From: a virus
Lineage: Duplodnaviria > Caudoviricetes
IMG/VR virus record: IMGVR_UViG_3300021387_001157
Location: 129,841-193,840 of that record
Strand: one strand, 5' to 3'
Length of the DNA stretch: 64,000 nucleotides
Positions 27,043-45,261 of this stretch are shown here, in pieces. The position numbers were made by a program, and so were the translations under genes. Below the pieces are notes generated by a model. The model saw nothing but the letters and a program-made list of their open reading frames with translations, did not search any database and was not told the origin of the DNA. Numbering within the stretch: position 1 is the stretch's first letter; each line of letters begins with the position of its first letter.

Positions 27043-27054
27043 AGAGATACTTAG

Positions 27055-28717: not shown

Positions 28718-28722
28718 ATTTG

Positions 28723-28795: not shown

Positions 28796-28801
28796 AAAAA
28801 C

Positions 28802-28900
28802 TAGGGAAGTGAATGGGATTGAACCCGTATCATCCGACATGCACACGCTTTGAAAGAAGTGCAAGTCTCAGATTTCACCCCCCGACGACCATCATTCCCC
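28802..28900 (-). ncRNA. tRNA-like RNA with elongated anticodon arm
   Basis: acceptor GGGGAATGA/TCACTTCCC; T arm; long arm capped by CTTTCAAAG. Confidence 0.5.
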
Positions 28901-29039
28901 AAAGGTGATTTGTCGTCAATATATCCTTATCTCCAATATGTCAAAGAACTTTTGGAACTTTCGTTCCTCGATTTCAAAGATACTATTCTTTTTTGATTTT
29001 TTCAAAAAGATTGCATCTTTTTTGAAATCTTTTTTTTTG

Positions 29040-29114
29040 TACCCCGTACAGGATTCGAACCTGTGACCTATGACTTAGAAGGACATCGCTCTAATCCTAC
29101 TGAGCTAACGGGGC
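29040..29114 (-). tRNA. tRNA-Arg(UCU)
   Basis: loop CT TCT AA. Confidence 0.9.
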
Positions 29115-29222
29115 ATATTTTTTATCTCATCAGATTAAATATAACAAAAAATCTGAAAAGATTATTTTTTTTTCAATGTACTCTCGTGATTTTCTCACGA
29201 TTTAAAAGATACTATTTATTTT

Positions 29223-29573
29223 TCAAACTATCAAAAAACTTTCAACTTTTTTATTTATGTCGGGGTTTTCTTGAAGAAGTTTTTTTGGAACAAGCACGTA
29301 TTCATCACAGTTATATATCTTTGACTCAGCCTCCCTCCACAACCGTTTAACTTCTTCTTCCGTCTCTCTCACATAGTATCCGTCAATGGGACAATCATCC
29401 AAACCTGTATAATATCTCACACACACTTTTCCATCCTTTTGGGTTTTTACTCCGGCAAATTCTTCCGTGTCCTGCCATTCTTCTTCACCAGTTTTTAAAT
29501 CATGGACACAAAATGATGTTGTGTGTACCATATCTACTTCGACTCTTACCTTTTCATCTTTATATATTTCCAT
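29223..29573 (-). CDS. hypothetical protein
   Basis: 116 aa ORF. Confidence 0.6.
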   Translation of the reverse strand: MEIYKDEKVRVEVDMVHTTSFCVHDLKTGEEEWQDTEEFAGVKTQKDGKVCVRYYTGLDDCPIDGYYVRETEEEVKRLWREAESKIYNCDEYVLVPKKLLQENPDINKKVESFLIV

Positions 29574-29592
29574 ATCTTATATTATTTAGTAG

Positions 29593-29665
29593 TACCAGTA
29601 CACGGACTCGAACCGTGATTGGGGCTTTAGGAGAGCCCTGTTCTATCCCGTTGAACTATACCGGC
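29593..29665 (-). tRNA. tRNA-Arg(CCU)
   Basis: loop CT CCT AA. Confidence 0.9.
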
Positions 29666-29672
29666 GAACAAA

Positions 29673-30038
29673 TTAACAAGGAACAATCTTACCGAATTTA
29701 CCGTCTTGTGCAATCATCGGAACGACAACTTCGGTATGTGAAAGTTCACTTTCATCGTTTATACTGTCCCATAACGGATTTTTCGAAAAAACGAGACAAT
29801 CACTACCAAAAGGAATAATATTTCCAAAAATGATAAGTCTTTCAATCGGCAGCTCGCCGTCAATACATGTTTGACACGATTCAATTTCAGAAAGAACTTT
29901 ATCAAATTCTCCAATGAACCCCCATTTCTGAGACTTGGAATTTTCAGTCACGTTATATGTGACGTAAAACCCATAAACATCACGGTTTCCCAATTTCTCA
30001 AAATCTTTAATCTCTTTTTCCAAATAATTTATTTTCAT
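29673..30038 (-). CDS. hypothetical protein
   Basis: ORF. Confidence 0.6.
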   Translation of the reverse strand: MKINYLEKEIKDFEKLGNRDVYGFYVTYNVTENSKSQKWGFIGEFDKVLSEIESCQTCIDGELPIERLIIFGNIIPFGSDCLVFSKNPLWDSINDESELSHTEVVVPMIAQDGKFGKIVPC

Positions 30039-30043
30039 ATTTA

Positions 30044-30331
30044 TTAAATTGAAATATTGATATTTTCTGGAAGTTCAAGAACACAATAACCTAATATTTC
30101 AGTATTATCCCATTCATTTTCTAAAAAATAGTTATGTGCAAATATTGTAATAGATGGATATATAGAAACATATATAATACGTTCTTTTTCCTCCAAAATC
30201 TTATTCCCATAATAGTCAAATTTTTTTTCCTTAATGTGACAAAGGAAATATTTTCCTTTGTCACGTAGGAAATTTATAGTCTCATTATTTACTCGTTTAG
30301 GTTTTTCAAAATATTCAAATTCAACTTTCAC
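30044..30331 (-). CDS. hypothetical protein
   Basis: ORF. Confidence 0.55.
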   Translation of the reverse strand: MKVEFEYFEKPKRVNNETINFLRDKGKYFLCHIKEKKFDYYGNKILEEKERIIYVSIYPSITIFAHNYFLENEWDNTEILGYCVLELPENINISI

Positions 30332-31757
30332 TTTTCTTAGATTTTAATACGTTCTTATATGCTTGCCTCATCAACTTCAAACAACTCTCACGAGTGATGT
30401 CTGGGTTGTTGTAGGCGTTACTCATAACCTGCTTTAAAATATCCTTGATGATAGGACCAGGTTCAACCCCAAGTTCATTGATGACATCATCACCGTTTAT
30501 CGGAAGTCTGTATCCGAACATCTTTGAAGTCTTTGCACACTCGACGAAACGTGTATATTGACCGGTTATGCAGTGACTCTTTTCGTGAGCGAGATTGTCT
30601 GCCTCGATGACTTGACAAGTTCTCAGAAAACGTTCCTCTGTACCACAGATGTACATAAATTTGTTGATTGACTTTTCCTTCATCTTACGGCAGTCGTTTT
30701 CAAACCCCTTTGCCCTCATATGGTTTCTAATGATGAAACACACTTCGTCAATGGTTTTGTTGTCAAACTTCAAACGTTGGAGTATTCTCTTTGCAACATC
30801 ACTACCGACAAGCTCGTGGTCGTAAAAATGAACTTTACCGTGTTCATCAACAGTTCTGCACTCTATCTTACCAATATCGTGGAGTAATGCACCGAGACGA
30901 CAAATCAAATCCGGTTCAAAGAGGTCACAGTCGTTCTTCAGAACGGCGAGGGTATGAACCCAGACATCACCGAAGTGATATGCATTTTGACCAAGACCGA
31001 TAGTCTGTTCAAGTTCAGGAATGACATACTTCATTGCACCGATGTCGTTGATGAGCATTATCCCATGATGAGCATTTTTTGTCATAAGGATTTTGCAAAG
31101 TTCATCGTTGATTCTCTCGACGGTGATGATAGAAAGTCTGTCGGCATTTCTCTTCATTGCATTGAAAGTCTCATCTGAAATCTTGAAACCAAACTTTGTA
31201 TGAAAACGGACAACCCTCAAAATTCTCAAAGGGTCGTCAATGAAAGTCTGGTCGACCATCTGTTCCGACACCATTTCCATAGGTACTCTCAAAACACCGT
31301 TGTGAATGTCTTTGATACCACTACCAGTCAAGTCCTCAACCTTCTTTTTCGAAATATTGTAGTAGAGAGCGTTTATGGTGAGGTCTCTACGACTTGCATC
31401 CTCACTCAACGGTGCAAATACAGTCTGTGGGTTACGGCTGCCGGCATCGGTGTATTTCTCACCACGAGTCATTACACACTCTATTTCGTCATCCGGAAAT
31501 TTATTGAAATGGAACATTGCTGTCCCGTATGTCTCGTATACAACAACTGTTTTTGTAAAACCGTTGTCTTTACACCAGTTTGCAAACCTCACACCACCTT
31601 GTGGAAGGTCTATAACGAGGTCAATATCCTTGATTTCTTTTTCCATAATCAAATCTCTCACGGAACCTCCGACGGCGAAAACGTGTCCCTCGAACTCACT
31701 CCCTTTGGTGATTTCATCAATATATGATGTTATTTCTAAAAATTTTTCTTTTGTCAT
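30321..31757 (-). CDS. cca: CCA tRNA nucleotidyltransferase with HD domain
   Basis: VGGSVRD..DIDL, RRDLTINAL, DDPLRILR, LLHDIGK. Confidence 0.92.
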   Translation of the reverse strand: MTKEKFLEITSYIDEITKGSEFEGHVFAVGGSVRDLIMEKEIKDIDLVIDLPQGGVRFANWCKDNGFTKTVVVYETYGTAMFHFNKFPDDEIECVMTRGEKYTDAGSRNPQTVFAPLSEDASRRDLTINALYYNISKKKVEDLTGSGIKDIHNGVLRVPMEMVSEQMVDQTFIDDPLRILRVVRFHTKFGFKISDETFNAMKRNADRLSIITVERINDELCKILMTKNAHHGIMLINDIGAMKYVIPELEQTIGLGQNAYHFGDVWVHTLAVLKNDCDLFEPDLICRLGALLHDIGKIECRTVDEHGKVHFYDHELVGSDVAKRILQRLKFDNKTIDEVCFIIRNHMRAKGFENDCRKMKEKSINKFMYICGTEERFLRTCQVIEADNLAHEKSHCITGQYTRFVECAKTSKMFGYRLPINGDDVINELGVEPGPIIKDILKQVMSNAYNNPDITRESCLKLMRQAYKNVLKSKKSES

Positions 31758-31769
31758 TTTTCCTCCTTT

Positions 31770-32102
31770 TTAATCCTTACAAAAATAATAGAAAATAAGT
31801 TGCAACATATTAATGTCATAAATCTTGAATTTTCTACAAAAGTAGGCTTTCTTTTGTGTACATCCTTCTTTCCAAATGATGAATCCGAGTTCGTCTGTGT
31901 CTGGTATATAATAAACCACATCTAATGTACTGTGGTCATCATATTCGATATCATAATCGGTTACATTTAAATGTAGTGTATTAAGGAATGGAGAAACTTT
32001 TTCACCATTTTCTTTTAATACATTTTTCACAGATTCAACAAGAATGTCGAATAACTCATTTTTCAAACCATCGATTTTTTCTTTTGCTTCTTTATAGTCC
32101 AT
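31770..32102 (-). CDS. hypothetical protein
   Basis: ORF following a promoter. Confidence 0.6.
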   Translation of the reverse strand: MDYKEAKEKIDGLKNELFDILVESVKNVLKENGEKVSPFLNTLHLNVTDYDIEYDDHSTLDVVYYIPDTDELGFIIWKEGCTQKKAYFCRKFKIYDINMLQLIFYYFCKD

Positions 32103-32237
32103 ATTTGTTTATTTTTTCGATGCAAAGATACGAACTTTTTTTGAATTACCAAACTTTTTTTTCAAAAAAATTGAATTTTTTTTATAACTAATTAGTTCAG
32201 TGGTAGAAAAAATTCATAATCAATCTTAAAACCTATT

Positions 32238-32410
32238 GTTATTTCTTGATAAGTTCAGTTTTTTTCCAGTTTTTTTTTATCCAATGTTCATCCGTTTGTA
32301 CGTGGTTTGCTCTTACGTATTTACAGACGTACTTTAGAAAATCCATAATTGGAAACCATTCAACTGTTCTCACAACAACACCTTCTTTTCCACACCATCC
32401 ACAGTTCCAT
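32238..32410 (-). pseudogene. remnant duplicate of the RNA ligase C-terminus
   Basis: GKEGVVVR..YVCKYVRANHVQTDEHW matches the end of 32646..33323. Confidence 0.7.
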
Positions 32411-32445
32411 TATTTCATCAATACTATATCAAACGTTTTCATCAT

Positions 32446-32670
32446 TTAGTCGTTCTTTAATAGTTCAACAATTTCTTCATCTGTATGCCACACACCGTTG
32501 AACGGTTTGAGTTCGGATTCAGTTCCGTTCTCAATGGCATCCATAAGTTTCAACACCTCGTTGTAGCAACGTGAACAAACCGAACATGTTCCGGATGAAC
32601 CACGATGGTTGAGACACTCTTTGTTTTGTTCTTGGATTTTACTCCTTAATGTTTCCCATTTTCCGTCCAT
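32446..32670 (-). CDS. hypothetical protein
   Basis: ORF. Confidence 0.5.
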   Translation of the reverse strand: MDGKWETLRSKIQEQNKECLNHRGSSGTCSVCSRCYNEVLKLMDAIENGTESELKPFNGVWHTDEEIVELLKND

Positions 32671-33323
32671 AATTGTGCTTTCTTCCAGTTCCTTGTCCAG
32701 TGCTCATCAGTCTGAACGTGATTTGCTCTTACGTATTTACAAACATAATTTGAAAATTCCATAATCGGAAACGAGTCTGTAATCCTCATCACAACACCCT
32801 CACGACCGCTTTTACAAGCATAGTATGATGTGTGTTCCATCAATTCGTCGATGATTTCCTTCACTTCACCCTCTTCTCTCAACACACACCTCTCCAATTC
32901 CGGAACGTGTGGGACACAGAGTATCTTTGCAAACTCCTTAACCTCATCCCAACTGTACCACAGATTACCGTCATTGACAGCGAACATATGCCAATAGTCT
33001 GACAGACAATCGTAATGGATAGAGTGCTCACCGTAAAGGTTCTCACCATAGATGGTTTCGTTTGGACCAATATACTGCTTAATTTTCCAATACAACCCAT
33101 CATACGAGTCCCAAAGGTTTCTTGACCAAGGAGACCTTGTTGGAGCACCGTGAGACCTTGCATACACATCATAATGTGTCATTGCTGTGTTTTCACCATC
33201 CAACTTCTCAGTGAATACAACCTCTTTTCCTTTATAGAAATCGAACCAACCGTCTTGAAGTTTTTTGTCGTCAGATGTTGCACCTGGTGACCAAGGAAGA
33301 TGGTATGTTCTTGGGTATTTCAT
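32646..33323 (-). CDS. ATP-dependent RNA ligase family protein
   Basis: YPRTYHLPWSPG; TEKLDGEN (motif I); GEN; EGVV; K.VR. Confidence 0.85.
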   Translation of the reverse strand: MKYPRTYHLPWSPGATSDDKKLQDGWFDFYKGKEVVFTEKLDGENTAMTHYDVYARSHGAPTRSPWSRNLWDSYDGLYWKIKQYIGPNETIYGENLYGEHSIHYDCLSDYWHMFAVNDGNLWYSWDEVKEFAKILCVPHVPELERCVLREEGEVKEIIDELMEHTSYYACKSGREGVVMRITDSFPIMEFSNYVCKYVRANHVQTDEHWTRNWKKAQLWTENGKH

Positions 33324-33535
33324 AGTGATATTATATACTTTTTTAGTTTTTCTTTCGAAATTCCAGTCATTTTTGACAATTCTTTCAAATCAACATCTAA
33401 GAAAAAATCCGATATTCCACGATAGTTGTTTGCTGGATTAACAGCATCAGTCAACCAAAACCGTGCATGTTCTACCCAGATTCGTCCGGATGCAGTCTTC
33501 TTTATTGACTTCTTTGTTTCTTTGATTGAGGACAT
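33320..33535 (-). CDS. hypothetical protein
   Basis: ORF. Confidence 0.5.
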   Translation of the reverse strand: MSSIKETKKSIKKTASGRIWVEHARFWLTDAVNPANNYRGISDFFLDVDLKELSKMTGISKEKLKKYIISL

Positions 33536-33894
33536 AATCTTGTGGATTTTATCAACATTATAATGTCTTTCTTTATATTCTCTCTATCTTTCGGTGATTC
33601 TATAGGGAGGTCGTCAAACAACATACGACAAACGATATTTTCCTTTTCGTAAGAATCATTGAAGTCTTTACACCCTTCCTTCAAGATTTCAATATGATTG
33701 AACCACAAACATATACGTTCCTCGTCGTGAATATGTTAAACTGGTGCAACCATAATAATTTCGTTGTTTTTGGTGGAGATGGATACGGAACCCCCATCAC
33801 GATATACATCGAATTTCAATGTTGGAAACTCGTTGAGAAGTTCCGTATACACCTCTTTTATGACAAACATAAACTCATCCCGTTTCATACCGAA

Positions 33895-34089
33895 TCAGTA
33901 AATTTTTTGGATGATTGAACCAAGTTCACTGTGGCACTTCTGCAACTTTGAATAGACCTCTGCACGGAGATTACCGGTTGCATCGTCTGAACAACCTAGA
34001 GACATAAGTTTTCCTGTCATTTCATCGAGTTTGTCCATAATCTCGATGGTCTGTTGTTTCAAACTGGATTTATTAAGAAATGTACTCAT
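33895..34089 (-). CDS. hypothetical protein
   Basis: ORF. Confidence 0.5.
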   Translation of the reverse strand: MSTFLNKSSLKQQTIEIMDKLDEMTGKLMSLGCSDDATGNLRAEVYSKLQKCHSELGSIIQKIY

Positions 34090-34225
34090 TTTTCGTATTG
34101 TCTTGTTTCTAAATTAAAAATTTTGTTGTCTGTGCCTTTAACACAATTCCTTGCAGAATTGATGTCTTTCTTGCCACACTTTACGTGACTGTCTTTGTCA
34201 ACTATTACATACTTTGGGGTAATCT

Positions 34226-34648
34226 TCATCTTTTTGTATTTTTAAAGTTAAACTTGACGTAACCAGACAAGGTTATAACCGGCATCTCTTTCCAATCTTT
34301 GATGTTGTTTGAATCAACCGGTTTCCCACCGTTGTCCGGATTTGTCATAACAGTGATGTGTTTAATTTCATTTGCACAAGGAATGTCTGTTTCGAGTTTC
34401 ACGGCAAACGCTTTATCAGAAACACCGTATTCGTATGCAAACACACGAAACATCTTTCCCTCATTTTCCATACACCAATCAAGTATTTCGTCAATCATAT
34501 TTGTATGAAAGGCGATTGTGTGATGTTCGGCAATGATTCTACCGTTTTCCCACTTTGGTGCAAACTTCATCACCTCATCCAACAACAATCTCTTTGATTC
34601 CTCAGTGAGGACAAGAGATGTATACAATAAGTTATTCATGTGCAGCAA
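34226..34648 (-). CDS. 2H phosphoesterase (cyclic phosphodiesterase, Trl1-CPD-like)
   Basis: two HxT motifs (HHTI, HITV); GKPVDSN. Confidence 0.75.
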   Translation of the reverse strand: MLHMNNLLYTSLVLTEESKRLLLDEVMKFAPKWENGRIIAEHHTIAFHTNMIDEILDWCMENEGKMFRVFAYEYGVSDKAFAVKLETDIPCANEIKHITVMTNPDNGGKPVDSNNIKDWKEMPVITLSGYVKFNFKNTKR

Positions 34649-34892
34649 AGTTTATGATTTCTATTTCACTACCTAGAGAGAAACTTCTGAACTCGTTTTT
34701 CTCCATATCGAAAAAAACCTGTACCTTCGGAGACGACGGACGGCTGGGTTTCCAATCACCAAGTTTCTCAGTGAGAATGTTGGTTTGAAGAGTTCCAACG
34801 GCGGTTCTGATAGAGCCATCTTTCTTTTTAAACGTGAAAGTTACAACTCCTTTGTGGAGGTCTTCCTTTATTTGTTCTGCTACCGTTCTCAT
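34632..34892 (-). CDS. WYL-like SH3 beta-barrel protein (DUF2693-like)
   Basis: VVTFTFKKKDGSIRTAVGTL..FFDMEKNEFRSF. Confidence 0.75.
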   Translation of the reverse strand: MRTVAEQIKEDLHKGVVTFTFKKKDGSIRTAVGTLQTNILTEKLGDWKPSRPSSPKVQVFFDMEKNEFRSFSLGSEIEIINFAAHE

Positions 34893-35029
34893 TTTTTTTC
34901 TTTTTTATAAGTTAAACTTCTTTTTTATTTCTCGATGCAAAGATACGAACTTTTTTTGAATTATCAAACTTTTTTTTCAAAAAAATTTAATTTTTTTTCG
35001 TAACTTGTTGATATAAAGTGATAAAAAAA

Positions 35030-35758
35030 TTAATTTTTTTTGTATTTTGTAGCACAATTAGAGATAATTTTCTTATAATTAGGGTTCTCTATATTGTATT
35101 TTGTGTGCATTTTTCTATAATACTCATCACGAGTTGGGATATGGTTAAAAATTTCATAGTCCCACAATACCCTGTCGAGAACAGAGCATTTCCAGTTCTT
35201 AAAGGTGGCGAATCTTCCAGACTTATACAGAGATAATGTTTTTCTCTGTGTTGGGTGGTCCATTCCGAACAAGTTGTTATAACTTCTACCGACATTTGAA
35301 TTACCAAAACCAGACTCAATTTGAGCACAAGACTTAATCACTTCTGGATACCAGATAACACCTTGTTCCGTTAGATAATCTATATATTCACAAACACTTT
35401 CCTCGGTACATTTCCCACAATTTTTTTCTAACATCACCACACCAATTTCGTGGTATAGAGTAAATTCACTTTCTTTGTATTTTTTGTCGTTAATTTCCGA
35501 TTTAAGTGACTCTATGGTTTCCAAATGTGTTTCGACCTTTCCCTTATGGTTTTGCAAGTCTGTATGTATAAAAAAGATGACACACAAAAGAAATGCAATA
35601 AATGATAACAATAATATGTTTTCTTTTGATATATAACTTCTTTTATTGAATAAAAGTGTGTTCATATCAAGTGTATATCTTCTATGTGACTCTATTGTAG
35701 ATTTTACTTTTTTTAAAAAATTTACAATAAAGTTTTTCAGTTTTTTTATCTGTTCCAT
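35030..35758 (-). CDS. membrane-anchored glucosaminidase (peptidoglycan hydrolase)
   Basis: TM helix; AQIESGFG..NNLFGM. Confidence 0.75.
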   Translation of the reverse strand: MEQIKKLKNFIVNFLKKVKSTIESHRRYTLDMNTLLFNKRSYISKENILLLSFIAFLLCVIFFIHTDLQNHKGKVETHLETIESLKSEINDKKYKESEFTLYHEIGVVMLEKNCGKCTEESVCEYIDYLTEQGVIWYPEVIKSCAQIESGFGNSNVGRSYNNLFGMDHPTQRKTLSLYKSGRFATFKNWKCSVLDRVLWDYEIFNHIPTRDEYYRKMHTKYNIENPNYKKIISNCATKYKKN

Positions 35759-35862
35759 ACTTATATATTTTATTATATTTACAAAGATACTATTTTTTAA
35801 TTAAAAAAAATGGGGTACAACCAATATTAGTTATACCCCATACTTTCATTTTCTCGTCTTTG

Positions 35863-37440
35863 TTAAGAATCTTCATCATCAACTCCGTTGGCGGCATAGT
35901 ATTCATCCATTTCGGCATAGGTGAGTTGAGTTTCCATATCGACCTCACCAGCATCATACTGCTTTCTTTCTCTTATTCTGAATGCTTCTGTCTTCAGTTT
36001 AAAAGCTTCTGCCTTTTCGTCATTTTCTATACGGATGACGACACCTTCACGTGGAACACATTTATTACACATCGGTTCGTTCATCTCCATACCGAATCTT
36101 TGTTTGTCGTTTTCAAGTCGTTCAAGCAACGATTCTTGCCAGTGATGTTCTGTGTCGAGGTCTGGATAAAGGTCTCCTAGACGACCATGATAAAGGATTG
36201 TGATTGGCTTTATTTTACCTTTCAACTCGGGATGTTCATTCAAAATATTTATTGTCCATTGATAAACATCCTGTACATTCCAATCAACATGGTTTCCTTC
36301 GGCATCAGTTTCGGTTATTCTGTAAGGCATCAAGATGTTCTCACCGATTTTACAACCGTAGTCGTAACCCTTCTGAATCATACTTGTTGTACCGGTAACA
36401 TAACCGACAATCTCACCATACAATGTCATACCTTCATTCAAAAGTGGATAAATAATCTTTCCGTACTCTGACCAAATATCGACCTTGTAGAAACCCTTTC
36501 CAACTTCTTTATTGATGTACTTGTTCTTTATAACACCTCTTGAAGACGTTATTTCACCATACTTAACAACAAATTCTGGAAGTAATCTCTCTCTTCTCTT
36601 GTGGTCTATTGAACTCATAGTTCTTCTGATGAAGTTTCTGATTTCCCTGACAGATTTCTTCATGAAACTCTCATCAAGGTATTTCTTTGTGAGAACATTA
36701 CCACATATGAATGATGTTCCATGCTCCTTAACAGAGATATCAACAACTGTGTCAGGATTGAATTTCCAGAGATTATCCTTCAACAATTTTGTGTCGTAGT
36801 GGAAAGCAAACTGACCATCTACCATACGGTCGAGTTTCATCATAGTCTTTCCTCTCTTTCGGTCTTTCTTAGAAACTCCTGTCGGATTGTTTTGACGGTG
36901 CTGAACTGGTGGAATGTATGCCTTTATGAAAAGAATACCATCAACGGTGTCAAAATCAAATGGGACAACAATTCCATCTTCATTTGGTTCGAAACACTTC
37001 TCAAAATCATAGTCCAACACCTTTGGATTCCACTTAGCAAGAGAATCGATTGAGAAAAGACATCCTTCAGATGTACACCCACGAAGTTTGACCATCTTCA
37101 CACGACCGTGTTTGTTGAAATATCCAACCATCTTCTTAGCTTCGGATTCCTTGCCTTCATCAATGAGTTTCTGAACTTCCTCATAGTTTTTGTTGAGATG
37201 TCTTTCACTCATTTCAAACTGGTTGTTGACAGACAGGAAATCCTTGTTGATGGCGGTCTCCATCTTACAATAGACCATGATGTCACCTTCCTTTACACTA
37301 TCCTTTCCGACAACGACTTGGTATGCACCTCCAATTTTTGTTTTGACGAGAAAATCAGAACCCTCAATTGGAAGCAACTCACCAATCTTTACAATTTGAG
37401 CACAATACTCCGGTTTTATTTTTTCACTTTTTGTAAACAT
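35863..37440 (-). CDS. RNA ligase (DRB0094/Rnl2-like, N-terminal OB domain)
   Basis: PIEGSDFL OB segment; KEHGTS, LYGEIVG, EGVV, FKLK. Confidence 0.8.
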   Translation of the reverse strand: MFTKSEKIKPEYCAQIVKIGELLPIEGSDFLVKTKIGGAYQVVVGKDSVKEGDIMVYCKMETAINKDFLSVNNQFEMSERHLNKNYEEVQKLIDEGKESEAKKMVGYFNKHGRVKMVKLRGCTSEGCLFSIDSLAKWNPKVLDYDFEKCFEPNEDGIVVPFDFDTVDGILFIKAYIPPVQHRQNNPTGVSKKDRKRGKTMMKLDRMVDGQFAFHYDTKLLKDNLWKFNPDTVVDISVKEHGTSFICGNVLTKKYLDESFMKKSVREIRNFIRRTMSSIDHKRRERLLPEFVVKYGEITSSRGVIKNKYINKEVGKGFYKVDIWSEYGKIIYPLLNEGMTLYGEIVGYVTGTTSMIQKGYDYGCKIGENILMPYRITETDAEGNHVDWNVQDVYQWTINILNEHPELKGKIKPITILYHGRLGDLYPDLDTEHHWQESLLERLENDKQRFGMEMNEPMCNKCVPREGVVIRIENDEKAEAFKLKTEAFRIRERKQYDAGEVDMETQLTYAEMDEYYAANGVDDEDS

Positions 37441-37716
37441 AGTTTTTTAAATTTTAATTGTTGATTGTTTCTTTTGGGGTTCAAGTCCTACCTTCTTACC
37501 ACCCCATTTTTACAGAACGGGGAAACTGTTACTTTAAATATAACAAAAAATCACCATTCTATTACTAAATTACTACATTTTTTTCATTATGAATTGGAAG
37601 AGTGTTACTCGTACCGAAGACATTGAATACCACTAGTTTTTTTGTGTAATCGAAATCCTTTGACCTTGCTATACTTAATTCTATCTCATATAATTCTTTA
37701 TTTGTGTCCATTACAT

Positions 37717-38351
37717 TTACTTTATTTTCTCACAAGCCTTGTTCCGGAAGATGTCACAAAGTTCCCAATACGAGATTGGTCTATATCCATTTTGGTCAAC
37801 TCCGACATCATACTGGTTCTTTCTTAGACGTGACGGAACATCACCGTCTATTCCGTAACAAGTACCGTCGCTCAAAGTATGAATGTGACCGAACACTTGG
37901 AAATCACCATTGAAAGCACAGCATGGATAGTGTTCACCATAAATCTTAACACCATCTACCATAATGAACGCCTTGTCAACAACGGCAATGAGATTCTCCT
38001 GTGGTTCCGTGCATAATGATATATAGTCATGGTTTCCTCTAATTAAGAGAATATTTCCAGTTAACTTTTTCATATATCTTAAATATGCATTCGTATCGAC
38101 TTTATGGTTCAACATAAAGTCTCCACAATGAATTACTATACCGTCTTCCGGAACAACAGAATTCCAATTCTCTATGAGAGTTTTGTCCATTTCTGACCTT
38201 GAATTAAATGGTCTGTGACAATACTTACAGATATTAAAATGTCCAAAATGAGTTAGGTGTCCGAGGTAAAATACAACTTATTTGGGTCATTTACACCCAA
38301 TGTGTATATACCTCGGAAATTGTTTGCTTCAATTGTTAAATTGTTTGTCAT
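37717..38351 (-). CDS. calcineurin-like metallophosphoesterase, interrupted by 5 nt (38251-38255)
   Basis: LYFTSDT*[ct]HFGH, HCGDF, RGNHD, FGHIH, DVGVD. Confidence 0.75.
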
Positions 38352-38392
38352 TTTCTTTTATTTTACGAATGTTTTTATATATTTTACCTTCT

Positions 38393-38929
38393 TTAAGTTG
38401 CATGACTCTCGATATAAGTTTTATATTTCTTGTATGTATCTCTTATCACATTCTCACCAACTGGATGCTCCCTCTTGGAATCACGCTCAATACACACCTC
38501 GAGTGGTGTGTAAATGAACCGATACTCAACGGCATATCCATACTCACGAGCCATCTTCTCAAGACCCTTTCTGATTTTGGAGTTGAGGTTCATGTTATCA
38601 GACACAACATCTTTTCCACTTTTGAATGCAGCGGTTAAAGCAGCATTTTCAATCTTTGTGACAATGTTTTCGAGATTTGGGTTAAACGGTTTTCCCATCA
38701 TCAATCGAATTTCATCACGATTGACACGGATACGATTGTCGGGGTCTTCAAGGACAAACTTACGAGCAGCAGTAGACTTACCACTTCCCTGCAATCCTTG
38801 ATATATATAGAATGTCTTTTTTTTATTCATTGAAGTCTTCTTATTCTTTAATTTGAATATCCAATCCAACAAATAAATTACCAAAAATAAAATGCATAAT
38901 ATTATTGCAATAACTAAATAAAACATCAT
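38393..38929 (-). CDS. polynucleotide kinase-like P-loop kinase (AAA_33)
   Basis: GLQGSGKST, RVNRDEIR, DNMNL, CIERDSKR. Confidence 0.85.
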   Translation of the reverse strand: MMFYLVIAIILCILFLVIYLLDWIFKLKNKKTSMNKKKTFYIYQGLQGSGKSTAARKFVLEDPDNRIRVNRDEIRLMMGKPFNPNLENIVTKIENAALTAAFKSGKDVVSDNMNLNSKIRKGLEKMAREYGYAVEYRFIYTPLEVCIERDSKREHPVGENVIRDTYKKYKTYIESHAT

Positions 38930-38930
38930 A

Positions 38931-39362
38931 TTAATTCTCGTTTTTTAATTCTTCACGTACTTGCATTAAAATCTTTCCAAGGTTATTCTGTCCCTTTCCG
39001 TTACAGACACCCCATATTGTGTCACCCCAGTCATTTCCTTCTTCAAGATAAGCGTCTCCGGTTGCAAGGAGTTTTTCTTTCAAATCCTCGTTTTGTTGGA
39101 ACTTGTTTCTAACAATTTCCAACATTTCTTTTATTTTTATCTTATCCCAATCATGTCTAAGGATAACATTTCTACCTTTTCTTTTTGCCCGAGACGGGTC
39201 GAGTTCCTGAAACTGCTTTCTTTGTTCATAAGAACTGCATTTCTGTGCTTGAAAAGCGGCCTCACTATTCTTGAACTTCAAACCGTCATATTCAACCGGT
39301 GCTTCAAAAAAATTGCTCAAGAAAAAATATTTTCCTTTAAAACAATCAATCTTATTTTTCAT
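38931..39362 (-). CDS. NADAR (YbiA/DUF1768) family protein
   Basis: FLSNF, SEAAFQAQK, KFQQN, WGDTIWG, GQNNLGKILM.VR. Confidence 0.92.
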   Translation of the reverse strand: MKNKIDCFKGKYFFLSNFFEAPVEYDGLKFKNSEAAFQAQKCSSYEQRKQFQELDPSRAKRKGRNVILRHDWDKIKIKEMLEIVRNKFQQNEDLKEKLLATGDAYLEEGNDWGDTIWGVCNGKGQNNLGKILMQVREELKNEN

Positions 39363-39429
39363 ACCAAAAAGATACTATTATTATTTCAAATTATTAAAAA
39401 TATAAATACTTTATATAAAAAAAATTATT

Positions 39430-40215
39430 ATGGACAAACTTAAAAAAGTAATCGACTTTATAGTCAAGTACAAAACATTGTTTCTAATCGGTATCATCTT
39501 GTGTATGTCAGTAATCGTTGTAAACCAATGTTCATCTAACAAAAACCTCAAGAATGAGATTAAAAAACAACATAACAACGAACTCGCCTTACAAGACTCA
39601 ATCACACAGTACACCGATGAACTTGGAAGAGTAAATGCAGAAAAACATGCATATCAACTTTCCCAAAAAGAACTATCCGATTCTATCGGTAAAATTAACA
39701 AGAAACATTTTGAATATGTTTCATACTTAAACACACAACTCGGAATAAAGGATACTGTTGAACTGTTTTTCTACATTGACAGACCATACAGGGATACAAG
39801 TAAATTTGATAACGGAGTCATCAAAATAGACACAACCAATACATTTGGAAAATCTAGTCGTAAACTTCTCGTCTCAATCCCTTATGACATAGATACAATG
39901 TTGAACCTACAAAAAAGCACAATTTCACTCGAGCAGAACATCTTCCTCGAAGGATGGCTTGAACGAAACAACAAGACCAACGAAACATTCGTGCATCTAC
40001 GTTCTGACTACCCAGGTATAACGTTTAATGGTGGAAACGGTTTTGTTGCCGAACCATCTGCCAAATATGACAGAAGTATGAGAAAAAACATGGGTATTGG
40101 ACTTTTTGTTGGACCATCAGTTGGTTTCGGATACACACCAGAGAAATGGCAGCCTTATGTTGGTCTATCGGTTGGTGTTGGTCTCACATTTACTCCGAGA
40201 TTTCTCCAATGGTAA
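39430..40215 (+). CDS. membrane-anchored coiled-coil protein (possible lysis/spanin-like)
   Basis: N-terminal TM, coiled coil, C-terminal beta-rich GIGLFVGPSVGFGY. Confidence 0.55.
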   Translation: MDKLKKVIDFIVKYKTLFLIGIILCMSVIVVNQCSSNKNLKNEIKKQHNNELALQDSITQYTDELGRVNAEKHAYQLSQKELSDSIGKINKKHFEYVSYLNTQLGIKDTVELFFYIDRPYRDTSKFDNGVIKIDTTNTFGKSSRKLLVSIPYDIDTMLNLQKSTISLEQNIFLEGWLERNNKTNETFVHLRSDYPGITFNGGNGFVAEPSAKYDRSMRKNMGIGLFVGPSVGFGYTPEKWQPYVGLSVGVGLTFTPRFLQW

Positions 40216-40217
40216 TC

Positions 40218-40248
40218 TAAAAGGATGAACATCGTTCATCCTTTTTTT
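40218..40248. terminator. bidirectional terminator
   Basis: AAAAGGATGAAC-ATC-GTTCATCCTTTT between convergent genes. Confidence 0.7.
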
Positions 40249-40414
40249 TATTCGTCTATTATAAATGACTTTTTACACTTCTTACATCTTAGTATATATG
40301 AATTTTCAACATCGTCCCATTTGACTTCATCTGACTTAAAATGTTTTCCACAATTCGGACATCGGTTGAAAAGCAATCTTAGTTTTTCAATAAACGTAGT
40401 CACTCTCATCTATT

Positions 40415-40750
40415 TCACTTTTTGTTATCTCTGTTTTTACCTATATGGTATCCGTCACAAAACAAACACTTATATGCACTGAAATGAACACCACGTTTTT
40501 TTGACATTGCTTCTGCACTTTTCAAAGCAGTTTCCTTTGTGTTATATGTGACTTTTGGCTGTCCAGTAGTTTGGTTTATATGGGAATTTATTGAAAATGC
40601 TCCCCAAGCATTCCTGGTTATGAAAAAGTTATAAAAAAACCTCTTTCTTTTAACTTGGTCTAAAAACCACATCCAGAAATTCTTAAACTTTATTCTCTGT
40701 TTCATCATTCCAATGTTTAACAACTTCATTTTCATAATACTCATACACAT
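40415..40750 (-). CDS. hypothetical protein
   Basis: YKCLFCDGYHIG zinc-finger-like. Confidence 0.55.
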   Translation of the reverse strand: MCMSIMKMKLLNIGMMKQRIKFKNFWMWFLDQVKRKRFFYNFFITRNAWGAFSINSHINQTTGQPKVTYNTKETALKSAEAMSKKRGVHFSAYKCLFCDGYHIGKNRDNKK

Positions 40751-40868
40751 TCATATAACAACTATGTGTCTTGTCCATCTTTCGTTTTGCTTCAAAAAGG
40801 ATAGAAAATATCTTGTATAAAGTATCATTTGATGGAAGTTCGCTATTTGTGTTTTTTTCTTGTATTTT

Positions 40869-40906
40869 AAAAAGGGATTCTCTAATTCAATCTGAGAATC
40901 CCTTTT
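40869..40906 (-). terminator. intrinsic terminator
   Basis: AAAAAGGGATTCTC..GAGAATCCCTTTTT. Confidence 0.7.
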
Positions 40907-40938
40907 TATATCCTTTTGTATAAGATTCTACATCCATT

Positions 40939-41256
40939 TTAATAAAGTTGTCTTGCATCATCTATGGACAGCATAGTCTTATTTTCCAAATCCAACCTAA
41001 ATCTTTCTGTTGGATTTTCGACACTATATGCATATTTTCCATCGAAAAATATATGATAAACACCATCATTCGTCAATACAACATGTGTCCATGCAGATGT
41101 CATTGCATCTCCGCCGACACCGCCGAAACCTAGTGATGTGTTCCCCCACATCTGTGTAAATACCCAGACATTCTCAACTTCCAAATCAGGAAACGTGGAC
41201 ATTCTGTCATCAACTTTTATTGTCGATAAAGATAAACTTTTTAACATTTTTTTCAT
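40939..41256 (-). CDS. hypothetical phage protein
   Basis: FTQMWGNTSLGFGGVGG. Confidence 0.65.
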   Translation of the reverse strand: MKKMLKSLSLSTIKVDDRMSTFPDLEVENVWVFTQMWGNTSLGFGGVGGDAMTSAWTHVVLTNDGVYHIFFDGKYAYSVENPTERFRLDLENKTMLSIDDARQLY

Positions 41257-41389
41257 AATAAACTATTCTTGTTTGTTTTTATTTTTGTCAATTATCACTA
41301 AAATATTTTTATTTTTTTCCATTGTCTCTTTCATAGCTTTTTGTTTAGCTTCCTCTAAAAGAGTGTACATTGTGTTATCACTGTTCATA

Positions 41390-42070
41390 TTATTCTAATT
41401 TTTTACATTCTTCTTCACTATATTTTTCATGAAGTCTGTCAATCCACCATTTTGTTTTGAATTTCACTTTCGGCATTCTCTGCCCTTTCAACAAAGAAGA
41501 CCTTCGACAAACAACACCTTCTTTGACCATTGGGTATTTACAATCCGGTTTCGTCCAGTCATTTTCGAAAATTTCATTGATGAAAGTCTTCGTCAAAATT
41601 CCTTGGTATATGAGTTCGGGGGTTTCAATGTCTGGATTGTCACAAAATAGTTCAATAAATGGTTTCGGTTCAATGTATCCCTTTTTCTTGATAAAGACAT
41701 CAATGAGTGGTAGTCTCATCTCATCACCAATCTGGTGTACACCGGCGAAACTGTTCTCACCATACCATTCAAAAAAGAACGTCACTTCATCAACTCCTGT
41801 GAATAAACCACCTTTACCATTGTTTTTCTTCACAATTTCTGTGAGAACTTGTGGTATAGTTGAATTTTTGAAAAATCTGACGGTATTGCCAAACTGTTCA
41901 GATGATTCATCTACCATCTGTGTTCTGCTCCCAAACGTATCGAATACCATCTTTTTCAGATTAAACTTTGCACAGAAATTCTGACCGTCCAACTTATTGA
42001 AAGCATACACATATTCCCCCATAAGTGTTCCGTCATCTTCTATTCTAGATATACTGTCGTAATGTTTCAT
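41390..42070 (-). CDS. RNA ligase-like nucleotidyltransferase
   Basis: KLDGQN, FFEWYG, EGVV, K.K. Confidence 0.75.
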   Translation of the reverse strand: MKHYDSISRIEDDGTLMGEYVYAFNKLDGQNFCAKFNLKKMVFDTFGSRTQMVDESSEQFGNTVRFFKNSTIPQVLTEIVKKNNGKGGLFTGVDEVTFFFEWYGENSFAGVHQIGDEMRLPLIDVFIKKKGYIEPKPFIELFCDNPDIETPELIYQGILTKTFINEIFENDWTKPDCKYPMVKEGVVCRRSSLLKGQRMPKVKFKTKWWIDRLHEKYSEEECKKLE

Positions 42071-42318
42071 TGTTTCAACAATAGTTTTTTTACAAATTCA
42101 CCAAAAAACTCTGCTTGCTTTTTTTCTTCCTCTTCTGTGAATTCCGGTGAGCTCATTCTTTCTGGATGTTCATCGAGAAATCTGTCTGAATGAAGATGTG
42201 TTGTTGTTCCATCTTCATTCACACTGATACTTTCAAGTTCATATGCAAGTGTATTTTTGTATATTTCATGAAGAATCTCAATAGAACGGTTTTTACAAGT
42301 TCTACACAACTTATCCAT
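42067..42318 (-). CDS. hypothetical protein
   Basis: ORF. Confidence 0.5.
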   Translation of the reverse strand: MDKLCRTCKNRSIEILHEIYKNTLAYELESISVNEDGTTTHLHSDRFLDEHPERMSSPEFTEEEEKKQAEFFGEFVKKLLLKQ

Positions 42319-42321
42319 AAG

Positions 42322-42981
42322 TTATTTCTTCTTTGTGTATATTTTGTCTATAAGTCCATATTCTAGTGCTTCACTTGCAGTCAACCAATGGTCACGGTCA
42401 CAATCTGCAATGACTTTTTCGAAACTTTGACCAGAATTGTCGGACAACATCTTACAAAGTTCATCCTTGACAAGTTTAATCTGTTCGGCTTCGATTAGAA
42501 TATCAGACGCCTGTCCCCTTGCCCCACCGAGAGGTTGGTGAATCATTACTCTAGAATGTTTCAAAGCACTCCTCTTTCCTTTTGCTCCAGCAGAAAGGAT
42601 AACTGCACCCATACTTGCTGCCATACCCATACAAACCGTCTGAATATCGTTATTGATAAAGTTCATAGTGTCTATGATTGCCAAACCGGAATAAACCTCA
42701 CCACCTGGCGAATTGATGTTCAAAGTGATGTCTTCATCACCACTCAACGAACTAAGATACAACATCTGTGCATTGATAATGTTTGCAACGTCAGCATCAA
42801 TTCCAGTACCGAGAAATATAATCCTCTCCATCATAAGACGACTGAACACATCCATTTGGGTGACATTTAACTGTCTCTCCTCAAGAATAGTAGGGTTGAT
42901 ATAACCCATTCGTGCAATATATTTGTCGAGTCCATTTTCATTGACTCCATTTCCTTTTGCAAATTTCTTAAAATCTTCCAT
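42322..42981 (-). CDS. clpP: ATP-dependent Clp protease proteolytic subunit
   Basis: DVFSRLMMERIIFL, INSPGG, AASMG, MIHQPLGG. Confidence 0.97.
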   Translation of the reverse strand: MEDFKKFAKGNGVNENGLDKYIARMGYINPTILEERQLNVTQMDVFSRLMMERIIFLGTGIDADVANIINAQMLYLSSLSGDEDITLNINSPGGEVYSGLAIIDTMNFINNDIQTVCMGMAASMGAVILSAGAKGKRSALKHSRVMIHQPLGGARGQASDILIEAEQIKLVKDELCKMLSDNSGQSFEKVIADCDRDHWLTASEALEYGLIDKIYTKKK

Positions 42982-42983
42982 AT

Positions 42984-43838
42984 TTAAATAGTTATAATAA
43001 AGTATTCGGAATTTCCAGCGTTATCGACAAACCATAAATCCTTCCCATTCGACATTGTTGTCTTGTAGAAACAATTATCCAACACACAATCAAATTCCGT
43101 ATTTTTGAAACAAAATTTTCTATTTTCTTCTACACACATCATAGTGTGTCCAACAACTTGTCTGAAATCACCGTATGGATACTTGGCGAGCATCGTAGGA
43201 CGTATCCACGTTGGACCTTGATTTGGGTGGTTTCCCCAACCACTGAAATCATAATCGTAGTATGATACTATTGAACATAGTTCATCAACACTCCATCCTT
43301 TCTTACAAACTTTTTTAAAATCATATCCTTTTGATGTAACCATATTTACCCAATCATAACTTACACCGGCATGACTGAAGATACAATTTCCAATGACAAA
43401 CATAAGTCTCGAATCTTTAAGATTTTCGGAAATAAGATTTCTGATAGTTTCAATCTCATATTCATCTTTGGAACTTCTGTTTGTCTCATCAGATTCAATG
43501 ATATATTTTGAAAGGTCATGATTTCCAAGAATAGACACAATTCTGTCATCCATTTTCATGCAAGAAATAAATGTATTGTATCTTTCGACCATAGTTTCGA
43601 AATCGACATTTCCATATGGGTCAAAATGGTCCCCGAGAACTACTATTTTACTCACATCGTCGTTATGTTTCAAAATATGTTCATATCCTTCGATGAACTT
43701 TGGAGTACCATGAATATCACCAATCACTGCAATCTTTTGACATTCCGTCAAATCAATCAAAACCCGTTCAGAATTTTGTTTGCTCACTTCTGGTTCTGTC
43801 GTTAATGTTATTATATGTGATGATATATTATTTTTCAT
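42984..43838 (-). CDS. metallophosphoesterase
   Basis: GDIHG, LGD, GNHD, SHAG, VGHT. Confidence 0.9.
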   Translation of the reverse strand: MKNNISSHIITLTTEPEVSKQNSERVLIDLTECQKIAVIGDIHGTPKFIEGYEHILKHNDDVSKIVVLGDHFDPYGNVDFETMVERYNTFISCMKMDDRIVSILGNHDLSKYIIESDETNRSSKDEYEIETIRNLISENLKDSRLMFVIGNCIFSHAGVSYDWVNMVTSKGYDFKKVCKKGWSVDELCSIVSYYDYDFSGWGNHPNQGPTWIRPTMLAKYPYGDFRQVVGHTMMCVEENRKFCFKNTEFDCVLDNCFYKTTMSNGKDLWFVDNAGNSEYFIITI

Positions 43839-44596
43839 TTTTTGTTCTGGTTTATGAATCTACGGGTCGTGTAGTATAGCACAACATATCTCTTTCCGTT
43901 TGATTCCTTGTACTCACACTTATTTTTCCACATAAACACAAAGTTATTGACCAACATTCTCTTGAAAAAATCTTGAAGATTGTTGATAAATTCGTCGTCT
44001 GACATGTCATATGTATGGTACAATATTTGTTTTTCTATGTCGATATAGAATCGAACATCATTTTCTATCGGGAGTTTTCTACCGATACCGAAAACAACTC
44101 CGTTTGGATGGATGGCGACTCTTGGTGTTCCGACAACATATACTTTGCTGTTTTTGGAAAATTCGTCGATGAGTTTTTCGACTCTTTTTGATATACTCTC
44201 TTCTGTCTTTTCAACCGTTTCTATATTTTTTGGTTCTTCATCTGAATTATTTTTTGGTTCGTTTTCATAAAAAAATGTCACAATACCATCTTTAATATGA
44301 AGATATTTCATTTTAAAGACAATATTGTCAGATGAAAACATACGTGTCACAGACAATTCTTGCATAAAATCAATCATTGCCCCATCCAAATCCTCTTCTG
44401 ATACACTATCTCCGGCCTTCAATATCTGTTTTACGATGGAAGGTGTCAATTCAATCGAAAATGTATTCAACCTTATCACATCCTCCCACTTCTCTTTGCT
44501 TACCTTTATTTTTAAAACATTCATTTTTATTATTTTTTTTTTTTGATTATATATCACTTCCGACCATCGTCTCAAACGTTTCAAGTAAAATCTCAA
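43835..44596 (-). CDS. hypothetical protein
   Basis: long ORF; start uncertain. Confidence 0.6.
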   Translation of the reverse strand: MRFYLKRLRRWSEVIYNQKKKIIKMNVLKIKVSKEKWEDVIRLNTFSIELTPSIVKQILKAGDSVSEEDLDGAMIDFMQELSVTRMFSSDNIVFKMKYLHIKDGIVTFFYENEPKNNSDEEPKNIETVEKTEESISKRVEKLIDEFSKNSKVYVVGTPRVAIHPNGVVFGIGRKLPIENDVRFYIDIEKQILYHTYDMSDDEFINNLQDFFKRMLVNNFVFMWKNKCEYKESNGKRYVVLYYTTRRFINQNKK

Positions 44597-44709: not shown

Positions 44710-45261
44710 CTATTTTTCATTTTTATTAAGTTTGGTTGTATCTTCGGAAATAGTGTCTTCAAACCATTGTCCGAAATCATCTGTCTTAGATACAAATTCG
44801 GGTTCGTGTTCCTGTAACCACATACACTGTTCTACAAACTCCTTTTTGATTTGACTCAAGTCAAAGTTACTGTATTTTCGAATATATCCGAGACATTTAA
44901 AAATGTCGTTTCCGAATACCATTGCTTCGACATTCGTATATTCATCAAATACACTTTTTACTTTATTTCCACCAATTATCAGTTCTCTGTTAAAGATTTC
45001 TATCTTTCCAGAATATGAAATTCTTAACACAGAATCTTTCATAAAATGGTTTTCTCTTACCCATTTGTAGTTCAGGTCAACTACTCCCTTTGTATTAATC
45101 ATATTATGAACCCACCAATAACGATGAACATCACAATACCATTCGGGTAAATCTGATGGTTTTTTCTTTGTTTTGTATAAACGACAGTTACGATTAGCGG
45201 TAAGGAAACCGTCTTCTTTCGGGTCTCTCGAATAATAATATTCGTTTGCTAATTTTCCCAT
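44710..45261 (-). CDS. hypothetical protein
   Basis: 183 aa ORF; TAG stop. Confidence 0.6.
   Translation of the reverse strand: MGKLANEYYYSRDPKEDGFLTANRNCRLYKTKKKPSDLPEWYCDVHRYWWVHNMINTKGVVDLNYKWVRENHFMKDSVLRISYSGKIEIFNRELIIGGNKVKSVFDEYTNVEAMVFGNDIFKCLGYIRKYSNFDLSQIKKEFVEQCMWLQEHEPEFVSKTDDFGQWFEDTISEDTTKLNKNEK

Follow-up and report, generated by a model that had tools for sequence, protein, structure and literature searches.

The last 64 kb of the 193,840-bp IMG/VR virus record IMGVR_UViG_3300021387_001157 (here called the window; CheckV completeness of the record, 67%; GC content across the window, 30-44%) belong to an uncultured giant phage of the gut or rumen. Directly downstream of a large transfer RNA (tRNA) array, and in the same minus-strand orientation, the window carries a block of genes at 30.3-43.8 kb for predicted RNA end-processing enzymes. 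We propose, with a probability of roughly 0.65, that this block supplies the proteins of a phage translation island, combining a kit for the healing and sealing of RNA ends with an enzyme that acts on tRNA 3' ends. The kit packs 10 genes into 13.5 kb, and a further ligase gene, the fourth, lies elsewhere in the genome (Table 1). Kits of this type have already been described for T4, for bacterial Pnkp systems, and for jumbo phages; the set described here is unusually complete.

A cyclic phosphodiesterase, a kinase, and a ligase are the three activities of the fungal tRNA ligase Trl1 and of T4 Pnk/Rnl1 repair. A first-pass annotation of the window had listed a CCA enzyme with an HD domain, three ligases plus a ligase remnant, a Pnk-like kinase, a 2H phosphodiesterase, two metallophosphoesterases, and a WYL-like protein, and had interpreted them as a heal-and-seal toolkit. 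All of these components were confirmed in the sequence. Their interpretation as such a toolkit is supported at the level of family, fold, and motif: the genes are intact, catalytic motifs are conserved, the folds of the 2H protein and of the 226-amino-acid (aa) ligase match solved structures, and the core genes stay adjacent in distant phages. At the level of family and synteny, a predicted role in RNA repair is well supported.

The kinase matched AAA_33 (1.4e-16) and the phrog_505 polynucleotide kinase family (1.2e-30), and its closest solved relatives in the PDB are Pnkp1 (4xrp, 2.5e-12) and T4 Pnk (1ly1, 1.9e-11). The translation holds a P-loop, GLQGSGKST, together with an NRDEIR motif, and the true start is probably Met34 (position 38830). 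No 3'-phosphatase is fused to the kinase, which covers only positions 2-146 of the 295-position phrog_505 profile. Members of this family were counted in 1301 phage records.

For the 2H phosphoesterase, the true start is likely the ATG at 34639, giving a protein of 137 aa. Its two motifs, H42-x-T44 and H97-x-T99, are invariant in 22 homologs. An AlphaFold2 model (predicted local distance difference test [pLDDT] score, 93.3) returned the Trl1 kinase-cyclic phosphodiesterase (CPD) structure 6u05 and mouse CNPase as top Foldseek matches with a probability of 1.0, and LigT-like structures matched as well. In Pfam, the protein scored 20 bits against tRNA_lig_CPD, under the cutoff of 23. A tblastn search of the phage database found homologs in crAss-like Bacteroides phages only; in one of these, PhiCrAssBcn24 (L259, 16429-22812), a TROVE (Ro60-like) gene and the homolog are separated by 1.1 kb. 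The end of the WYL_2 gene overlaps the 2H start, and this adjacency is kept in the sister phage L003; the classic WYL family PF13280 gave no match.

The kit holds two metallophosphoesterases, one of which is interrupted and is described further below. The other, of 284 aa, matches positions 167-278 of phrog_8238, a 737-aa "RNA ligase" family, and positions 2-142 of the same profile are matched by the kinase. The 284-aa protein is similar to the phosphatase part of phage proteins in which a kinase, a phosphatase, and a ligase are fused.

Three intact ligase genes lie within the block. Direct sequence searches against the PDB returned nothing for the 525-aa and 225-aa ligases or the 284-aa metallophosphoesterase and noise only for the 226-aa ligase; a fold search and a family profile were therefore needed. 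The largest of the three, the 525-aa protein, is a predicted enlarged Rnl5-like ligase. It matched the OB domain family PF21189 (PHA02142) over residues 14-77 (5.4e-7), the phrog_968 RNA ligase family (4e-37), and the DRB0094 N-terminus (TIGR02306, 5.8e-5), and a family profile built from 15 homologs had a single, collinear match in the PDB, the Naegleria gruberi RNA ligase (2e-8). Motifs I, III, IV, and V (K238xHGTS, E343-I-x-G-Y, E465-G-x-V-x-R, and K481-x-K483) are invariant in those 15 homologs. Like the Rnl5 enzymes of N. gruberi and Deinococcus radiodurans, it consists of an OB domain followed by a nucleotidyltransferase domain with collinear motif matches. It exceeds the Naegleria enzyme by about 185 aa; additional residues separate the OB domain from motif I, and the tail is acidic. 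Sequence identity is low, and sealing of 3'-OH/5'-PO4 nicks in duplex RNA is predicted here from the family. Ligases of this type were found in 378 phage-database records, 296 of which are mycobacteriophages.

The other two are stand-alone nucleotidyltransferase domains. The 225-aa ligase matched PF09414 over the full length of the model (1-171 of 171; 9.7e-25; 88.1 bits against a cutoff of 27) and the phrog_24030 RNA ligase family (9e-44), of which it covers the C-terminal two thirds only. It is 97% identical to its counterpart in L003, with further relatives in phiCbK-like phages, XacN1, and Atu_ph07 in the phage database. Nearby lies the C-terminal remnant of a second copy, which is 69% identical to residues 172-218 of the intact ligase (tblastn E value, 4e-22), with 86% nucleotide identity over 57 nucleotides (nt). 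In the megaphage Lak-A1 (MK250016.1, 292243-293959), a homolog of the 225-aa ligase is found as two segments separated by about 1.2 kb; the matching stretches contain stop codons, and an inserted element may have split the gene.

The 226-aa ligase scored below the Pfam cutoff (2.3e-5) and was placed by its fold: an AlphaFold2 model (pLDDT, 94.6) matched TbREL1 (1xdn, 7.8e-9) and T4 Rnl2 (2hvr, 1.9e-7) in Foldseek, and T4 Rnl1 and NgrRnl also matched. Motifs I, IV, and V (KLDGQN, EGVV, and KxK) are invariant in 28 homologs. The protein stops after motif V and lacks the Rnl2 C-terminal domain, which T4 Rnl2 needs for nick adenylylation; no conserved neighbor that would supply such a domain in trans, as in the REL1/OB-partner model, was found across records G000, G001, G004, and G014. 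Within this record, PF18043, the Rnl2 C-terminal domain, matched only the fourth, full-length Rnl2-like gene outside the window. Homologs of the 226-aa ligase number 540, among them an "RNA ligase" of a Lak megaphage, and identities run from 62 to 93% in the 120 listed; the protein is highly conserved in Lak megaphages.

The CCA-adding enzyme was assigned from the Pfam families PolyA_pol (Pol-beta head, 1.2e-24), PolyA_pol_RNAbd (RNA-binding neck, 1.7e-17), and HD (1.8e-9), as well as from NCBIfam tRNA_CCA_actino (1.4e-67), and its translation shows the GGSVRD, DID, RRD, and HD motifs. A 3' CCA could be encoded by no more than 2 of 36 phage tRNA genes, most of which are followed by A-rich sequence; the role of the enzyme would therefore include everyday tRNA maturation as well as repair.

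Comparison with other phages defined a conserved core consisting of the 525-aa ligase, Pnk, and the 157-aa-type phosphoesterase, which are adjacent or within a few kilobases of each other in L016, L019, L020/21, and G014. In G014, four tandem Pnk-type kinase paralogs (36.9-40 kb) directly adjoin the phosphoesterase and the Rnl5-like ligase. In Xandras, a 75-kb mycobacteriophage, a homologous 525-aa-type ligase lies 0.6 kb from Pnk. In the sister phage L003, Pnk and the phosphoesterase are separated by an inserted gene for a C5 cytosine DNA methyltransferase (7620-8700), which is not present in the window. In G000, G011, G013, G003, and G002, the kit directly adjoins or flanks the tRNA array. 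Near-identical DNA of the block had no match among 50,697 phage records, and PADLOC gave nothing informative.

From the enzyme families, a sequence of steps can be proposed. Cleavage of tRNAs or other RNAs by host or rival nucleases would generate termini with a 2',3'-cyclic phosphate and a 5'-OH. Pnk would phosphorylate the 5'-OH and the 2H protein would open the cyclic phosphate, after which the remaining 2' or 3' phosphate would be removed by one or both metallophosphoesterases or by the HD domain of the CCA enzyme. The break would then be sealed by one of the four ATP-dependent ligases (the Rnl5-like 525-aa enzyme, the 225-aa or 226-aa enzyme, or the full Rnl2), and the CCA enzyme may add or restore the 3' CCA that is missing from nearly all of the phage tRNA genes.

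Table 1. Features of the RNA end-processing block and the interrupted tRNAs (positions in the window unless a contig is named)
Feature	Positions	Strand	Basis
Interrupted tRNA 1	16628-16766	minus	Rfam, ARAGORN
Interrupted tRNA 2	17924-18100	minus	Rfam, ARAGORN
Interrupted tRNA 3	18482-18604	minus	Rfam, ARAGORN
Interrupted tRNA 4	19302-19421	minus	Rfam, ARAGORN
Interrupted tRNA 5	25285-25402	minus	Rfam, ARAGORN
Class II CCA-adding tRNA nucleotidyltransferase with C-terminal HD phosphohydrolase domain, 478 aa	30321..31757	minus	Pfam, NCBIfam
Ligase remnant, C-terminal 48 residues of a second 225-aa ligase copy, motifs IV and V retained	32251..32394	minus	tblastn
Stand-alone nucleotidyltransferase-domain RNA ligase, 225 aa	32646..33323	minus	PF09414, motif I KLDGEN
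Minimal 2H phosphoesterase, CNPase/Trl1-CPD-like, 140-aa open reading frame (ORF)	34226..34648	minus	HxT motifs, model
WYL_2 (Sm-like SH3 barrel) protein, 86 aa	34632..34892	minus	PF10902, 2.8e-19
Rnl5-like RNA ligase, N-terminal OB domain and nucleotidyltransferase domain, 525 aa	35863..37440	minus	PF21189, phrog_968
Metallophosphoesterase, main segment, HFGH... to stop, 177 codons (157-aa ORF at 37717-38190)	37717..38250	minus	PF00149, 1.1e-5; phrog_547, 8.6e-28
Coding gap of five nucleotides, UAACU, stop codon first	38251..38255	minus	Between ACC take-off and ACU landing
Metallophosphoesterase, first segment, MTNN...LYFTSDT, 32 codons	38256..38351	minus	Includes 3' arm of stem ending at take-off codon
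T4-type 5'-OH polynucleotide kinase (Pnk), stand-alone, 178-aa ORF	38393..38929	minus	AAA_33, phrog_505, PDB
NADAR domain protein (ADP-ribose processing)	38931..39362	minus	PF08719, 4.8e-27
Stand-alone Rnl2/REL1-like nucleotidyltransferase-domain RNA ligase, 226 aa	41390..42070	minus	AlphaFold model, Foldseek
Second metallophosphoesterase, 284 aa	42984..43838	minus	PF00149, 1.5e-9
Fourth ligase, full-length T4 Rnl2 type	L002:1177-2175, 32 kb upstream of the window		PF18043 C-terminal domain

The kit was compared with known systems for RNA repair and splicing. With T4 Pnkp and Rnl1, which act against the PrrC anticodon nuclease, it shares a 5' kinase whose domain is homologous to that of T4 Pnk, 3'-end healing, an ATP-dependent ligase, and a tRNA-carrying phage as its bearer. 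Unlike T4 Pnkp, the kit kinase has no HAD phosphatase, so that healing would fall to the 2H protein and the metallophosphoesterases, and T4 uses Rnl1, whereas the kit ligases are Rnl2- or Rnl5-like. The bacterial Pnkp/Hen1 systems and the split Pnkp1-Rnl-Hen1 arrangement (Capnocytophaga, 4xrp) likewise combine a kinase, a metallophosphoesterase, and a ligase. The separate genes of the kit resemble the Pnkp1-Rnl split, and no solved structure is closer to the kinase than that of Pnkp1; in contrast to the bacterial systems, each activity here has its own ORF and the ligases belong to other subfamilies. Matching gene content is seen in the RNA repair sets that Iyer et al. (2021, PMC7824862) described in jumbo phages, which have several ATP-dependent ligase paralogs, Pnk, 2H, calcineurin-like phosphatases, a CCA enzyme, NADAR, and many tRNAs. 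The kit differs from them in being unusually complete and compact, with two stand-alone nucleotidyltransferase-domain ligases, a stop-hop phosphoesterase, and adjoining interrupted tRNAs. That study, covering 224 jumbo phages, interpreted kits of ATP-dependent ligases, Pnk, 2H, calcineurin-like phosphatases, and CCA enzymes as counter-defense against RNases that attack translation (PMC7824862).

The likeness to fungal Trl1, which had been drawn in the first-pass annotation, held in part when the kit was set beside fungal and plant Trl1 (ligase-kinase-CPD) with Tpt1. The three activities are present, and the 2H model best matches the Trl1 kinase-CPD structure 6u05. The kit proteins are separate, however, their ligases are of other types, and neither Tpt1 nor a splicing endonuclease was found in the record. 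The analogy is incomplete for want of Tpt1, as a 2'-phosphate would need a phosphomonoesterase before sealing.

Motif I, with its Asp, is missing from the 157-aa phosphoesterase ORF and is encoded upstream in a different frame. In the mRNA, the junction reads GAC ACC UAA CU CAU, and omission of five bases restores the canonical SDTHFGH; the take-off codon ACC is at 38256-38258, and the landing codon ACU overlaps the gap. The same 5-nt gap is present in the sister phages L003 and L024 (as UGACU) and in L016, with which protein identity is only 36%, while in L005 the gap is 6 nt and in frame (CUU UAA CUC). In each of the five interrupted genes, the take-off codon is synonymous with the landing codon, and the 12 nt that precede the take-off codon pair with a complementary segment upstream at -15 to -16 kcal/mol, a value reached by none of 300 shuffles, versus only -1.6 to -7.7 kcal/mol for the same pairing in intact homologs (n = 6). 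The main segment is under purifying selection, with a ratio of nonsynonymous to synonymous substitution rates (dN/dS) of 0.12 against the sister phage, and the later motifs GD, GNHD, H, and GHxH are invariant in 11 homologs. The phosphoesterase is intact in 77 of its 80 best IMG/VR relatives. The sequence pattern of the gap fits a programmed stop-hop; a 2016 review of recoding knew of no natural in-frame stop-hops at that time (PMC5009743). A plain pseudogene was rejected on the basis of the dN/dS value, the invariant later motifs, and an interruption common to diverged phages. A -1 or +2 frameshift was also rejected, as it would break the D-x-H spacing and leave the in-frame 6-nt version of L005 unexplained.

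The tRNA array occupies 14.8-29.7 kb (14799-29665) and holds 32 ordinary tRNA genes and a permuted transfer-messenger RNA (tmRNA) gene, all on the minus strand. A further five tRNA genes, for a total of about 37, are interrupted by inserts of 45-105 nt. These five short-insert tRNAs had been noted in the first-pass annotation and were recovered here as full-model Rfam matches spanning 118-177 nt and as the same five calls from ARAGORN with introns allowed; as the two methods agree on all five, they are genuine. ARAGORN with introns allowed also called a candidate tRNA-Lys(ttt) with a 298-nt intron at 15685-16056, for which Rfam gave no match. At 18290-18367 lies a tRNA with a CTA anticodon, labeled Pyl by ARAGORN, which would decode TAG and may be a suppressor tRNA; stop-codon-recoded gut phages offer a parallel, and the stops at hop sites are TAA or TGA, never TAG. 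Just past the kit, a 138-aa ORF at 45746-46162 weakly matches the GIY-YIG homing endonuclease domain of SegE (E value, 0.0035). Introns in the tRNAs of Lak megaphages have been published as "enigmatic" and left unexplained (PMC6784885).

To assess the proposal of the first-pass annotation that the kit matures the short-insert tRNAs, 13 whole related records were scored for tRNAs, interrupted tRNAs, and each enzyme by tblastn, together with profiles for three enzyme families. This co-occurrence check, set by that annotation itself, gave no support to the proposal. G004 (351 kb, 100% complete) carries the CCA enzyme, the 225-aa, 226-aa, and Rnl5-like ligases, 2H, Pnk, and a phosphoesterase, yet none of its 23 tRNAs is interrupted; a full kit without interrupted tRNAs in a complete genome was counted in favor of a role in repair. 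Conversely, the close relative G011 (96% complete) has 38 tRNAs, 4 of them interrupted, and neither 2H nor the 226-aa ligase, also by profile search. G003 (32% complete; 23 tRNAs, 5-7 interrupted) has the Rnl5-like ligase, Pnk, a phosphoesterase with the 6-nt hop, and the CCA enzyme. No interrupted tRNA was found in G013 (54% complete; 22 tRNAs), which has the Rnl5-like ligase, Pnk, an intact phosphoesterase, and the CCA enzyme, or in G006 (77% complete; 18 tRNAs), which has the Rnl5-like ligase and the CCA enzyme. The same holds for G007 and G009 (both 100% complete; 8 and 10 tRNAs, respectively), where the Rnl5-like ligase is present and the CCA enzyme, Pnk, and the 157-aa-type phosphoesterase are not; G009 has a distant relative of the 284-aa phosphoesterase. 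Lak-A1, with its published tRNA introns, carries several ligase genes, 2H (by profile, 3e-24), and kinase candidates. Together, kit size follows the size of the tRNA array and not the presence of inserts, and the carriage of inserts neither requires 2H or the 226-aa ligase nor follows from having them. In a separate observation, the four records with the hop-type phosphoesterase (G000, G001, G011, and G003) are those with the most interrupted tRNAs (4-7), and those with an intact gene that were compared (G002, G004, G010, G012, G013, and G014) have 0-2. This association involves only two independent lineages and may therefore reflect a shared load of selfish elements.

Possible partners of the kit were sought in the whole 194-kb record. 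The first-pass annotation had recognized no splicing endonuclease in the window, and this extends to the record: neither the splicing endonuclease family PF01974 nor RtcB nor TROVE/Ro60 (PF05731) gave a match, and control genomes did match in each case. Tpt1/KptA (PF01885) had no match at E values of 0.1 or below in this 67%-complete record, with matches in three control genomes. Searches for Hen1 (PF12623) and for an Rnl1-type ligase, the T4 type for anticodon-loop breaks, were negative in the record and matched none of the control genomes either. A crAss-phage TROVE protein used as a query found homologs in G004 and G006 and none in this record; these homologs adjoin tRNA arrays (167.4-168.6 kb in G004 and 67.9-69.2 kb in G006). 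The suggestion that an endoribonuclease might be hidden among nearby hypothetical proteins led nowhere: Pfam and PHROGs searches of ORFs 14907-15560, 20501-21037, 23086-23640, 27702-28541, 29223-30331, 31770-32102, 39430-40215, 43835-44596, and 44710-45261 gave no lead, and the ESM Atlas returned no usable match for 43835-44596 or 27702-28541.

These results bear on a different explanation, namely, that all or some of the kit supplies the sealing activity of a protein-catalyzed tRNA splicing pathway that removes the 45- to 105-nt inserts from the five tRNAs. An endonuclease of unknown type, or trimming of the RNase P/Z kind, would make the cuts and the ligases would rejoin the exons, with the kinase and 2H taking part if the ends need healing. 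In Lak megaphages, the short non-group-I inserts would be removed by the same kind of pathway. The five interrupted tRNAs lie on the same strand 5-14 kb from the kit, their inserts are too short for group I introns, and the literature offers no explanation for those of Lak phages (PMC6784885). Between the 226-aa ligase and its counterpart in Lak, identity is 62%, and in the phage database this ligase is nearly confined to Lak-like phages, and ligases of nick-sealing types would suit breaks in the anticodon stem. Moreover, the 525-aa ligase occurs with a kinase or kinase candidate in every insert-rich lineage examined (G000, G001, G011, G003, and Lak-A1), in a sample that was selected by the presence of this very ligase and hence cannot show whether it is necessary for inserts. 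Weighing against splicing are the contrasting contents of G004 and G011, the wide distribution of the ligase and kinase families in phages without reported inserts, such as mycobacteriophages with few tRNAs, and the failure to find either PF01974 or an endonuclease lead among the neighboring hypothetical proteins. We know of no enzyme that cuts these inserts. Splicing by the kit is therefore considered unlikely, and it is retained at that level because no route for insert removal is known and because the ligase and a kinase or candidate accompany the inserts in every insert-rich lineage examined.

Several points weigh against the assignment of the block to RNA repair. Rnl2- and Rnl5-like ligases, to which all ligases here belong, act preferentially on nicks in duplex RNA. 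Unrelated genes (ClpP and a glucosaminidase), NADAR, and about a dozen small unknown ORFs are interleaved with the kit genes, so that the block does not form a pure operon; the part of the NADAR protein in the kit is uncertain. A 2'-phosphate, if left by 2H, would call for a Tpt1-like enzyme, and none was found in the 67%-complete record. Enzyme activities, substrates, and the host nuclease are all predictions for an uncultured phage. Finally, nucleotide signals, and not RNA ends, could be the substrates of 2H, WYL_2, NADAR, and the phosphoesterases. In the strong form of this last point, 2H, WYL_2, NADAR, and one or both metallophosphoesterases would destroy host immune signaling nucleotides or ADP-ribose derivatives, without belonging functionally to the repair genes around them. 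In jumbo phages, 2H, calcineurin-like phosphodiesterases, and NADAR have been assigned to counter-nucleotide defense as well as to repair (PMC7824862). The 157-aa ORF family is spread over 1233 phage records from many hosts, mostly without a known repair module, and 2H is dispensable in the close relative G011 and lies far from Pnk in a crAss-like phage. However, the 157-aa-type phosphoesterase stays beside the ligase and Pnk in distant phages, the 284-aa protein matches the phosphatase part of a fused kinase-phosphatase-ligase family, and the structures closest to 2H are the RNA-end enzymes Trl1 CPD and CNPase. We consider such a signal-degrading function improbable for these proteins, and the healing and sealing of RNA ends remains the preferred explanation.

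As a repair kit, the block would be a rich but expected example of how giant phages shield translation from host defenses that cut RNA, and it offers compact enzymes for biochemistry, including the 225-aa and 226-aa ligases, the 137-aa 2H protein, and the Rnl5-like ligase. Wider interest hinges on the neighboring interrupted tRNAs; the data neither require nor exclude their resealing by phage ligases. The comparison separates enzymes that are dispensable for inserts (2H and the 226-aa ligase) from those that are always alongside them (the Rnl5-like ligase and a kinase or candidate). To our knowledge, bacteria do not splice tRNAs with proteins, a long-standing gap, and splicing by this kit, if true, would give the bacterial world its first tRNA splicing system that is enzymatic and not self-splicing.

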